14,693 nucleotides of DNA. Source: a virus (Duplodnaviria; Heunggongvirae; Uroviricota; Caudoviricetes). Within the stretch, counting starts at the first letter, position 1, and every line of letters starts with the position of its first letter. Made by a program: the position numbers. Below are positions 3,001 to 6,000 of the stretch, one piece after another. Location of the stretch: the IMG/VR virus record IMGVR_UViG_2541047965_000006, one strand, 5' to 3'.

Positions 3001-6000
3001 ACCGAACAGGGCCGCGCTATTCGCCAGTACTTCATCAAGTGCGAGGAGGAGCTACACAAGGTAGCGCCGGAACGTGCCGCAGCATTACGCAGCCTGAACC
3101 GGGTATCCTTCCGTTTCAAACGGAGCGATTAAAAGTTACACAGGGTTACAGCCATCAGGGGAATGAAAGGGGGAGCAATATACTTCAAATTATAATAATT
3201 AGCCTGCTAACTGTTTTTGTACGCAATTTGCCATTCAACCACTGGTCAGGCTTCAGGTGTTGTCATCCAGGCTGTGCATTATGTTTGAACTACCAAAGCA
3301 CTACCAGGGCCTTACCAGGGGAGGGAGTGGCCTTCTGGTATGGGGACCGCCGTTGGCGTTGGCACAGTGTTGAGGTATGGAGGGTATGCAGGTAAGGGAT
3401 GCTCCCTTAAATTCCCCCATAAGTAGCACATAAAAATAACACGAGTCAAATTAATAAAACTTATGGTGTTGAATTAAAAGGAATTTCATTTTTAAAACAC
3501 AGTTTCACAAATGGAAAAGGTGCTCACAATCTGACCACATAAAGTACTGTTACACCCCCAGTATTTGGGGTATCAGTGGAATTTAATATCAAAACTCAGG
3601 AGTAAATCAGGTGATTATCATGCCTGTAAACATGACCGGTAACCGCTACAGGCTACCAGCACGCTACCACCGTCAGAACATGCCACGGCATCGCATGGCG
3701 GTTTGTGGCTCTGATTTCTGGCAAGGCTCAAAATCTCGCCAGCGTGTGGGGGGTGTCGCAGCAGAACCCGCGCCCCGCAAGGCTTCTGCGCCTGTTATCC
3801 AGACTATGACCGATAAAACAAAGGCGACCGTGAGAGGTCGCCAGTGGGAGAGCTACATACGTGAACGCATTACCTACAATGCCACATTTGCGGCTGGTGG
3901 ACAATGTGTTCAGTGTGGTGGATGTGATTTGCCTGATCTTAATCGTCGTGGGCATTTTCCGATAAATTCCTCGAGAGCAAATCGTATTGGTCTGGTGAGA
4001 AGTGGGGGGTTAAGTGATGATTCCCGTTTCCGGTGTGCTTTTTTGCGTTGGCATTCGAGTATGGATAATGCAACTTCCTGTAATTCTTCATCTGTCATTG
4101 TCTGCACCTGTAAAGAAACGCGCCGTAGTTCCACACACCACGGCGCTGGTGGTTCTTATCCTCTGCTTTTGCAGGGAGGTAAGAATATTTTTCGCACAAA
4201 TCGTTCTGCCGACACATCCGACCACATAAGCCAAAAAACGGGATATACTCGCCGAATCCCTTATAAAACGGGGATCGGGATTACCACCCCGCTGGAGTTA
4301 ACGGCGATACATGACGCGCCAGCGTCTTTTTTTGTATCGGCGCACACGCACACCTTATCAATGGTGGGCTGTATGGGGCTGACTTCGGTCAGGCTGGTTT
4401 CCGTTAACGCCAGTTGTGGTAACCCTGTACAGTCCACCGCCAGCGAGCTTACCACCTCCGGCGGTGGGTATATCCCAACGTTAACGGAGGCTGCCATCAT
4501 GGCTACTACCCCTGTCCTCGTACATTCTCAAACTGCCTTTATCTGGCGTTTTATCGCTTTTGGTGCGTCAGAACGTCAAATCATCCATGTGACCGCCTGG
4601 ACGGAACGTGAAGCACGTAGCCTTTGCCCGTCCGGTTGCGTTGCTGTATTCGCCGCCCGTATCCGTCAGGGGGTGACTCATGCTTAAAACCTTCCGTGTC
4701 TTTTCCCGTGCCGTTAACAAGCGCGGCTATACCATCGGCATCACGCAGAACGTGAAGGCTGCGAACGTCCAGGCCGCAATCAGCACGGTAATTAACAAAT
4801 CAGCTAAAGCCGGTTTATCCGGTGTGATGATCCACTCCGTTATATGTATTCAGGATAAGGAGTAATTCATGCGTAATTTTTCCGACATGACTGTTGATGA
4901 AGCAGCAAAAAGCGCAATGCAGGCAGAACTTATTTGTTCTCTGATGATGGGTAACACAGGTGAAATGACTGAAGGTGAGATTGAGTCATTGCTCGCCCTG
5001 ATTAAGCAGCTTACAGGTAAGGCTGGTAGCTGGCTGATTGCGGCATCGGGTGATATGCAATAAGGGAAGAAATAACAGGATGAAATAAATACCAGCGGAT
5101 TAACAAATTACAATCAGGAAATAAAAGCGATGGAATTAAAAAATACTGGCTTTACTGCCAGCGGCAAAACTCACCCTGAATTTATGCGCGGAGATATTTA
5201 CCGCGATAAATACGGTGGCACGGTAACGATTAAGGGCGTGGCAGAACGGCGCATCACTTATCGCCGTGAAGGCTACGAATATGACTGCGTGATGCCTGTT
5301 TATCAGTTCGTTCGTGATTTTACGCTGGTGCAGACTGCGCACAGTAAGCAGTCCACCAGCCGGAAGAAATCTCACGCAAATATTCAGGACATGAAGAACA
5401 TATCCAGAGGTAAAAAATGAAAAGCGCACCGAATTTAAAAAAACAGCCACGAGGGAAAATACACGCCGACACGGAAGTGATTATTTTCGCTGGCAGTGAT
5501 GCGTGGTCACACGCGAAAGAGTGGCAGGAGCAGGACGGGCGACTGGCTGGTGATAACGTACCGCCTGTCGTGCTGGCCGATGAGCAACTTAAAGATATTG
5601 GCAATCTGCAAATTGTGCCTGACGGGAGAAAATCAGCACGGATATACAAGGCCGGACACCTTGATCAGTTAATGGTTAAGGCGATAGGTCAGAAGCTGGC
5701 GGCGGCAGGCGTACAGGACGCAGACTATTACCCCGAAGGTATGCACCATAACGAGCGGCAGAACTGGCGTAACTATCTGGATACGGAGCGCCAGAATCTT
5801 TCTGACGGGCTGGTTATTGAACTGCCTGTGAAGAAAAAAACGCCGGACCATGCGGAAGATGAACTGAAGCCCCGCGTTGAATGCCGCGCTGATGGCGTTT
5901 ACTGGGTAACGCCAAAGGTTGATAAGCAATCAGGCGAAATTATCCGTCCGTTCGAATGGCTGTGTTCTTCCGTTGAATTACTCGGTTCAGGTGTCATTGG

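Follow-up and report, generated by a model that had tools for sequence, protein, structure and literature searches.

Why more than a kilobase of DNA at the head of a replication operon should be free of stop codons, when what it would encode looks so little like a protein, is the question raised by nucleotides 3611-4687 of the virus record IMGVR_UViG_2541047965_000006 (IMG/VR; Caudoviricetes), the whole 14,693 nucleotides (nt) of which are referred to here as the window. The answer preferred, with a probability of about 0.68, is that the region is an RNA switch for immunity and replication control of the type known from phage P4, that it belongs to a P4-related satellite (a Gram-negative phage-inducible chromosomal island, PICI), and that it lies inside a 'bridge' open reading frame (ORF) whose translation would prevent termination of transcription. 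The parts, their order, their complementarities, their homology to P4 and the openness of a frame devoid of amino-acid-level signal are properties of the sequence itself.

A preliminary description of the locus had offered a fast-evolving or degraded protein, one large non-coding RNA, or a frameshifted gene. None of the three fits, as the frame is a mosaic of two small RNA genes, a nested icd/kil gene, an antisense gene, and open spacer without constraint at the amino-acid level. The hint at non-coding RNA was nevertheless well placed, as the two small RNA genes, one isrK/seqA-like and the other of the C4/CI type, are within the frame.

The long open frame

The + strand ORF 3611-4687 has 358 codons and a GTG start, in agreement with the 1.08-kb open frame first reported, and the strong ribosome binding site ascribed to it is present as AGGAG at 3598-3602, 8 nt 5′ of the GTG. 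Three relatives have ATG at the position of this start (Shine-Dalgarno plus start codon, 3598-3613, + strand). At the other end the TAA at 4685-4687 overlaps the ATG at 4680 of the next ORF as ATGCTTAA, an overlap of 8 nt that bears out the translational coupling proposed for the pair. There is no stop in the long frame, compared with 8-18 in each of the remaining five frames of 3611-4498, and base composition gives a probability of 2.4e-6 that the 296 codons upstream of kil would be open and of 3e-7 that the entire 358 would be. The ORF is real and not a chance occurrence; it is a composite rather than an ordinary gene, and its identification as a long 'eta-like' bridge ORF with icd/kil in frame within it draws on BLASTP with P4 Eta, the Pfam family PF10554, this probability and openness in relatives.

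The skewed composition noted earlier is evident in the 296 codons upstream of kil when they are compared with 2,614 residues from other proteins of the window. Arg (9.5 versus 7.3 %), Ser (10.5 versus 6.0 %), Thr (9.1 versus 6.2 %) and Cys (3.4 versus 0.7 %) are enriched, while Leu (5.4 versus 7.3 %), Glu (2.4 versus 6.4 %) and Lys (2.7 versus 5.5 %) are depleted. The frame is not, as had been supposed, full of rare codons: AGG, AGA, CGG, CGA, ATA and CTA together make up 4.4 % of its codons and 5.0 % of those of the reference genes.

RNA genes, their targets and a nested gene

Two RNA genes lie within the frame on the + strand. The more 5′ is a leader RNA at 4256-4332 resembling IsrK and P4 seqA (Rfam isrK, 51.0 bits with a gathering threshold of 50), and it ends in an intrinsic terminator formed by a stem at 4313-4326 followed by a U-run to 4332. 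The second, at 4357-4444, is an antisense immunity RNA of the C4 / P4 CI type, matching the full length of the Rfam C4 model (RF01695) with 77.6 bits for a gathering threshold of 45; its loop b′ is at 4398-4409 and its single-stranded a′ at about 4415-4425. Complementary to C4 are candidate upstream targets inside the leader RNA, a1 at 4278-4287 and b1 at 4292-4304, for which inverted-repeat analysis gives pairing of 4278-4287 with 4416-4425 and of 4292-4304 with 4401-4413, and downstream targets at 4449-4490 (+ strand), a2 at 4449-4463 and b2 at 4479-4488. C4 nucleotides 4400-4409, TCCGTTAACG, are complementary at ten of ten positions to 4479-4488, CGTTAACGGA, and b2 overlaps the kil Shine-Dalgarno sequence, GGAGG at 4486-4490, 8 nt before the ATG at 4499. 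A permissive Rfam search of 3611-4255 revealed no second, degenerate copy of C4 or isrK, and a scan for tRNA and tmRNA genes found none.

From that ATG, in frame with 3611, the last 62 codons of the long frame (4499-4687, + strand) form icd/kil. They match NCBIfam phage_ICD_like (NF033153, 8e-16, 57.8 bits, aa 310-353) and phrog_29966 (3e-38), mismatches at codon positions 1, 2 and 3 are 38, 38 and 67, i.e. with third-position excess, and they are the sole part of the AlphaFold (AF2) model that has secondary structure and a predicted local distance difference test score (pLDDT) above 50. Judged from these sequence features, icd/kil is a genuine gene.

The relationship to P4 is direct. By BLASTP (E 8e-9) window residues 211-351 align with residues 36-206 of P4 Eta, and both proteins match PF10554. 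In P4 (NC_001609) the isrK and C4 Rfam families are inside one minus-strand frame, 8812-8168, whose last 65 codons begin '...EAAIMATT', and the window has the identical junction; P4 has a 28-codon in-frame insertion between seqA and CI relative to the window. DNA alignment with P4 also identifies a homolog of the P4 promoter PLE, ACCACA-17-TATACT (4221-4249, + strand). Its −10 box, TATACT at 4244-4249, corresponds to TATAGT in P4, is conserved in all four aligned loci, and would put the start of transcription near 4256, where the isrK model has its first base. The long-frame start at 3611 is 633 nt upstream of this −10 box, and isrK and C4 are inside the frame as they are in P4 eta.

In a search of a phage collection, Shiga toxin (Stx) phages matched the isrK-C4 segment only, with 83 % identity, and there was no match for 3611-4240. 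Some relatives have C4 + icd modules in tandem (L001 6172-6259 and 6632-6719; L002 6744-6831 and 7225-7312; L104 4030-4117 and 4511-4598), the second of the two lying in a frame of about 153 codons that overlaps the first icd at its stop. In the window there is a single module.

How the switch may work

By analogy with P4 and P1, in the resting state most transcripts from the internal promoter would end as a leader at the IsrK/seqA-like terminator (4313-4332), and read-through followed by processing would generate the C4/CI RNA (4357-4444). Two single-stranded segments of C4 would then bind the leader at a1/b1 and, over the kil Shine-Dalgarno sequence, a2/b2. With kil untranslated, the naked RNA would be terminated and the genes for the 61-aa, 64-aa, DUF4222 and DUF927 proteins would be silent. 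On induction, transcription may arrive from upstream, either from a candidate promoter at 3502-3530 or by read-through from the alpA-Rha operon, the latter being possible since no + strand terminator is predicted in between. The resulting mRNA would have AGGAG and the GTG at 3611, and ribosomes translating all 358 codons would cross the antisense gene, the IsrK terminator, the C4 gene and the targets, excluding hairpin formation, C4 pairing and Rho, before being handed to the next gene at the 8-nt stop/start overlap. Such a role is the one shown for eta in P4.

The candidate promoter, GTTTCA-17-CACAAT (3502-3530, + strand), comes from a relaxed scan, is weak, and may be the positional analog of P4 PLL; it is the only sigma-70-like match whose position is conserved in all four loci. 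P2 and P4 late promoters have an activator site, TGT-N12-ACA, and no such sequence is present in 3380-3625. The Rho-loading (C>G) profile has a mild C excess at 4400-4560 that is not decisive. An AT-rich leader and the first approximately 45 codons together form a conserved 5′ block (3380-3745, + strand), about 90 % identical in four loci with flanks of about 73 %, which is probably regulatory. The block breaks off abruptly at 3745, and its leader has a direct repeat, GGAATTT.A.T, at 3480-3496 and 3578-3594.

Codons without a protein-like signal

The impression that the frame does not look like protein is upheld by its skewed composition together with the lack of third-position excess outside kil and the antisense gene. 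Counted pairwise without correction for phylogeny, mismatches at codon positions 1, 2 and 3 are 12, 5 and 4 in 3611-3745, 41, 43 and 27 in 3815-3909, 69, 44 and 28 in 4099-4243, and 17, 19 and 11 in 4256-4444, so that none of these four segments has a third-position excess. AF2 gives residues 1-309 a pLDDT of 24-33 and almost no secondary structure, and residues 1-211 have no match to a Pfam, NCBIfam or PHROG family.

It had been stated that the long ORF has no recognizable domains, which does not hold, since PF10554 ('Phage_ASH' or 'Ash protein family') matches aa 212-305 with 44.1 bits (gathering threshold 26) and phage_ICD_like follows at aa 310-353. What PF10554 recognizes here is another matter. 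The match corresponds to nucleotides ~4244-4525, which is exactly isrK, C4 and the start of kil, and this region does not behave as a protein domain, in that its mismatches are the 17, 19 and 11 already cited and its pLDDT is 24-29. Because the match maps onto the isrK and C4 genes both here and in P4, its conservation is explicable at the RNA level.

In 4099-4243 there is a weak enrichment of mismatches at position 1 in each of two lineages (14, 7, 6 and 17, 12, 7); this position is the third position of a + strand ORF, 4014-4229 (71 aa, hydrophobic), and of a minus-strand ORF, 4234-4088.

The preliminary description had looked to homologous islands for an intact frame under selection as a protein. 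The first half of that expectation is borne out, in that the frame is intact in relatives; the second is not, as apart from kil and the antisense gene the substitutions give no sign of selection on a protein. On the bridge interpretation, selection on the first 296 codons would be for an open, translated frame and not for a folded protein.

The open frame in relatives and in other species

The E. coli set consists of the window and seven relatives picked by DNA similarity and not by ORF. In all eight loci a + strand ORF of 343-622 codons bridges the interval, and seven of these ORFs share the frame of icd (355-622 codons): the window with 358 codons, L001 with 474, L002 with 622, L003 with 510, L106 with 515, L108 with 420 and L109 with 355. 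The eighth, L107, has a 343-codon ORF (2776-3807) in another frame, ending 51 nt inside icd, and there ribosome coverage would be kept although the in-frame fusion with icd is lost. The chance probability of an open frame is from 1e-7 to 1e-13 per E. coli locus.

Where the frames start and what they pass through varies. The start is at the conserved Shine-Dalgarno and ATG, as in the window, in L002 and also in L103 and L104 (the latter two found by protein); it overlaps the stop of an upstream Rha/AntA gene in L001, L003, L106, L107 and L108, and also in L105 (found by protein); and in L109 it is just after an upstream helix-turn-helix gene. The content ranges from one to two C4-icd modules and from one to three antisense genes, with none of the latter annotated in L106. 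In L003 (3701-5233), L108 (2701-3963) and L109 (2710-3777) frames of 355-510 codons begin at the upstream gene's end, cross annotated YlcI/YnfO and phrog_21027 genes and reach an icd-like stop. In two relatives (L001 5060-6484 and L105 2501-4123) the frame opens with a real AntA domain (PF08346) that is followed by a non-protein-like stretch and PF10554; annotation by PGAP splits the intact L001 frame into several 'pseudogenes'.

A cross-species scan, with one genome per species and anchored on the kil Shine-Dalgarno and start, extends the comparison, though the sample holds few independent lineages and the same segments recur, in mosaic fashion, in many relatives. At least 100 in-frame codons are open upstream in 45 of 48 kil-type loci, compared with 7 of 49 and 1 of 49 for the other two frames; after dereplication the figures are 16 of 19 compared with 3 of 19 and 1 of 19. 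In the Orbaceae bacterium ESL0721 (L094, 41 % GC) 359 codons are open upstream of the kil start, with a probability of about 4e-10, and this locus has C4, kil and a long open frame that runs antisense through two ribbon-helix-helix genes.

A natural control is provided by 29-31 loci (L010, L017, L024, L038, L052 and about 26 others) in which the same Shine-Dalgarno and ATG start an unrelated, protein-like gene of about 150 aa (MATTPTQ.HALF...). Of those checked, C4 is directly upstream in all five and isrK also in two. Their upstream frame has a median of 17 open codons and reaches at least 100 codons in only 2 of 29. As these C4-controlled loci lack the long frame, the open frame is not a by-product of RNA conservation.

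A gene on the other strand

The minus strand was described as broken, and it does have three ORF pieces, of 75, 74 and 79 aa. A frameshifted minus-strand gene was considered for the 5′ part and set aside, as only a 62-codon minus ORF is conserved. Also rejected were the 75-aa ORF (3728-3955), which is without family matches and overlaps a terminator, and the 79-aa ORF (4261-4500), likewise without family matches and overlapping the RNA genes.

The conserved ORF (MTDEELQEVALSILE...; 3910-4098, minus strand, from ATG at 4098 to a stop at 3910) is identified by tblastn and its substitution pattern as an antisense gene. It is 64 % identical (E 1e-20) to the annotated E. coli protein WP_168728585.1, has no Pfam or PHROG match, and keeps its start, stop and length in seven loci. 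An intrinsic terminator, GGCGACC..GGTCGCC plus a T-run (3823-3842, minus strand), is predicted for it, and on the + frame this terminator corresponds to the invariant 'KTKAT'. A 10-bp GC-rich hairpin at 4120-4146, which separates the antisense gene from the promoter region, is terminator-like on both strands, and a relaxed scan places a weak candidate promoter for the gene, TCGGCA-17-AATATT, at 4184-4212 (minus strand).

Mismatches in the segment by codon position are 78, 73 and 143. The third codon positions of the antisense gene coincide with those of the + ORF, and since both frames share them, periodicity cannot identify the coding strand in 3910-4098. The split between synonymous and nonsynonymous changes slightly favors the minus frame, and this, with the protein-like sequence and the gene having its own terminator, favors the minus strand as the coding one. 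At the same position relatives have other minus-strand genes, for an Arc-like repressor, YlcI/YnfO proteins or phrog_21027 proteins, and the 62-codon gene, located where relatives carry Arc-like or YlcI-type genes, is probably separate cargo.

The register just described recurs. In 12 of 12 antisense genes inside long + frames the third codon positions are opposite those of the + frame: 3910-4098 (minus strand) in the window; 5604-5780, 5841-6020 and 6219-6407 in L002; 4123-4317 and 4375-4680 in L003; 7036-7203 and 7207-7386 in L094 (reverse-complement coordinates); 3096-3284 in L107; 3123-3323 and 3381-3560 in L108; and 3075-3380 in L109. The 12 genes make up roughly five families, and the shared register could come in part from shared ancestry. 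Among proxy genes this third-on-third register is stop-free over 62 codons in 15 %, compared with 38 % for the in-register phase.

Weighing the readings

Several points weigh against the bridge interpretation of the region. Translation of the long frame, and the action of Rho or the IsrK terminator on its RNA, are argued by analogy. The isrK match is barely above its threshold, and the dedicated c4-a1b1 covariance model fails, with 19.6 bits for a gathering threshold of 46.7. A strict sigma-70 scan of 2600-5500 found no promoter, and none that is convincing is upstream of 3611. The ORF is uncoupled from the AlpA-like gene (1559-1816), unlike its counterpart in P4, and between it and Rha are 957 nt in which no gene is confirmed. 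The AF2 model is built on only 17 related sequences, and for 3910-4098 the shared third positions keep periodicity by itself from telling the coding strand, and the difference between synonymous and nonsynonymous changes is small. In addition, L003, the only one of L003, L108 and L109 searched, has no Rfam C4, isrK or PF10554 match, and as its frame is open without such matches, openness does not depend on C4 and may have an additional function.

That the long frame is never translated, its openness being incidental to constraints acting on the RNA genes within it and on the antisense gene, with isrK, C4, icd and the minus-strand ORF the only real features, is unlikely. About half of the frame is indeed occupied by features under their own constraint (the antisense gene and its terminator, isrK, C4 and kil), and a frame antisense to a real gene is quite often without stops over 62 codons, at a rate of 8-38 % that varies with phase. 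Yet the segments without known constraint, 3611-3822 and 4099-4243, are also stop-free where other frames have 8-18 stops, eight E. coli loci of very different content all keep a bridging ORF, those ORFs start at the conserved Shine-Dalgarno or at or just after the end of the upstream gene, the joint chance is negligible, and C4 loci with a different first gene are open in 2 of 29 cases compared with 45 of 48 of the kil type. Furthermore, nonsense mutations in P4 eta cause termination (Forti et al. 1999, as relayed in PMC10111431). Were the 358-aa product instead a genuine functional protein, an 'Ash family', long 'Icd-like' or Bro-network member with a fast-evolving N-terminal 296 residues, one could understand the hundreds of database entries of 200-620 aa with the frame intact, the above-threshold PF10554 match, the real AntA domain that begins the frame in some relatives, and the strong and conserved Shine-Dalgarno and start. 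This is nonetheless improbable given that PF10554 coincides exactly with the isrK and C4 genes in the window and in P4, that third-position excess is confined to kil and the antisense gene, that the invariant 'KTKAT' is the antisense terminator, that residues 1-309 have pLDDT below 50 and almost no secondary structure, that the composition is rich in Cys, Ser, Thr and Arg and poor in Glu, Lys and Leu, and that the content of the frame is wholly different between relatives and the frame still open. 

It is more improbable still that the locus is a P1/P7-type immI (c4-icd-ant) or a Gifsy-1-type IsrK-orf45-anrP module whose output is an antirepressor directed at a helper prophage, and not the control of replication of the island itself. 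The C4 and isrK families are represented, as is an icd-like gene, Rha/AntA-type genes are nearby, upstream in the window and in relatives, and Stx phages have isrK-C4 segments of 83 % identity. However, neither ant nor anrP follows icd, the downstream genes have no Ant, AntA or KilA domain, the nested long frame, −10 box and overlap geometry match P4, and the layout is the int-alpA-Bro-primase one of Gram-negative PICIs, as set out in PMC10111431.

Beyond the bridge interpretation itself a wider proposal may be ventured, tentatively and at somewhat under even odds. The frame would be kept open solely for ribosomes to escort RNA polymerase across more than 1 kb which without it would go untranslated and which holds RNA genes, an intrinsic terminator and antisense cargo genes in their entirety, the Arc-like or YlcI-type ones for example. 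It would be a general device of satellites in Enterobacterales and Orbaceae that persists without C4, antisense genes would be accepted only in the third-on-third register, and the 'Ash' family and its use as an epsilon marker would be by-products.

Downstream genes and the island

Three small + strand ORFs follow the long frame. The first (4680-4865, 61 aa), which has the 8-nt overlap with the stop of the long ORF, matches phrog_3672 (4.8e-22); the second (4869-5063, 64 aa) starts 3 nt after the previous stop and matches phrog_1478 (5.6e-13); and the third (5130-5420, 96 aa) is a DUF4222 protein (PF13973, 2.6e-24; phrog_285) whose stop overlaps the start of the gene for a DUF927 primase/helicase (5417-7546) by ATGA. 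They had been proposed at the outset to be tightly coupled, and have the 8-nt overlap, the 3-nt gap and the ATGA. The accompanying statement that they have no recognizable domains fails for DUF4222 and for all three as PHROG members. Nor are they unrecognizable cargo, since PHROG and Pfam place them in conserved families. The 61-aa and 64-aa ORFs have about 94 % nucleotide identity in E. coli relatives, with substitutions at their own third positions, and DUF4222 precedes the primase/helicase in all five relatives that carry it. The 61-aa ORF was considered as a homolog of P4 epsilon, whose position it occupies, and was rejected for want of similarity. By position, the three are conserved accessory genes of the replication/derepression operon.

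The island has int (1-1083), an AlpA-like gene (1559-1816), Rha (1956-2654), DUF927 (5417-7546) and the single-stranded DNA-binding protein SSB (8731-9177) on one strand, and gene order suggests a Gram-negative PICI or P4-like satellite that is otherwise an ordinary member of its kind. Elsewhere in the window, 8731-13361 encodes, besides SSB, ProQ/FinO and PerC-family proteins (the latter a regulator), a J-like tail-tip protein that has a receptor-binding domain (10347-11999), and a Q antiterminator (12960-13361); these last two may belong to the island or to a neighboring prophage. An int-alpA RNA (RF02996) is between int and alpA in three other loci (L003 1524-1591, L015 2143-2210 and L094 3983-4048); a search of the window at the gathering threshold did not report it.

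Consequences for annotation and for satellites

Thousands of entries from E. coli and other enterobacteria call such frames 'Icd-like protein', 'Ash family protein' or pseudogene, whose real content, for frames of the window type, consists of a pair of RNA genes, a gene of 62 codons and antisense genes. A census of P4-like satellites (PMC8628076) took PF10554 as the profile for epsilon or 'Ash'. P4 epsilon matches PF25738 'Derepression' and not PF10554 (P4 regions 8330-8704 and 7888-8175 compared), and with PF10554 mapping to translated isrK/seqA and C4/CI, the marker detects the immunity-RNA locus and not epsilon. If the bridge interpretation is true, a mobile element can house antisense regulatory cargo in the leader of an operon with its transcript shielded from termination, and a single nonsense codon would be a handle with which to uncouple satellite replication from induction.

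Comparison with known systems

The Gram-negative PICIs with a 'Bro zone' (PMC10111431) share with the window a layout in four zones, int/alpA, Rha/Ant/'Phage_ASH', primase/SSB and late genes, and the Rfam C4 and isrK profiles are said there to match such islands. Phage_ASH is treated in that text as a Bro-network protein domain, in contrast to its mapping here onto RNA genes without protein-level signal, and the portion available makes no mention of antisense genes inside the frame.

The Gifsy-1 module of Salmonella, IsrK-orf45-anrP, shares an IsrK-family leader, a leaky intrinsic terminator, a processed stable RNA and coupled genes, and differs in its output, an antirepressor plus the Q-like AntQ, and in its short orf45; no long bridging frame is described in the accessible part of the account (PMC4825925). 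The immI region of P1 and P7 shares the C4 family, two target pairs, of which the first is a candidate in the window and the second is over the icd ribosome binding site, and a small Icd-like protein that follows. There ant follows icd, as it does not here; the icd of the window is nested in a long upstream frame, and the c4-a1b1 covariance model is not matched in the window (19.6 versus 46.7 bits).

It is with P4 that the order is shared throughout: an internal promoter, the seqA/isrK leader and terminator, CI/C4, a target over the kil Shine-Dalgarno sequence, and a kil of some 62-65 codons that ends a longer frame and has an 8-nt overlap, beyond which is the primase/helicase operon. The P4 immunity region, with nested eta/kil genes, CI RNA and its seqA and seqC targets, was reportedly described by Sabbattini et al. 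1995 and Forti et al. 1999 and is summarized in PMC10111431 and PMC4825925. The P4 frame is shorter, with 214 codons if counted from the earliest ATG in the open stretch compared with 358 in the window; eta itself has 197-199 codons. The window alone has about 215 extra codons upstream of the internal promoter, antisense through a conserved 62-codon gene with a terminator, and its frame has its own Shine-Dalgarno sequence after an AT-rich leader of about 190 nt, whereas the P4 frame overlaps the alpA/vis homolog. Downstream, the window lacks epsilon and has DUF927 in place of the P4 alpha type.

IsrK is a structural homolog of P4 SeqA, and pairing of CI with seqA and seqC leads to termination, according to PMC4825925. 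Citing Forti et al. 1999, PMC10111431 has Eta translation preventing termination and so allowing transcription to reach downstream genes, kil being a truncated form with full-length Eta coming only from the upstream late promoter, and CI being processed from the transcript of the internal promoter. In the literature searched, no description was found of a frame extended so far upstream, of one that runs through entire antisense genes, or of its persistence without C4. The core RNA immunity and the nested eta/kil arrangement are already known from P4, and with the core mechanism known from there, what the window presents is an extension of a known system and not a new principle.

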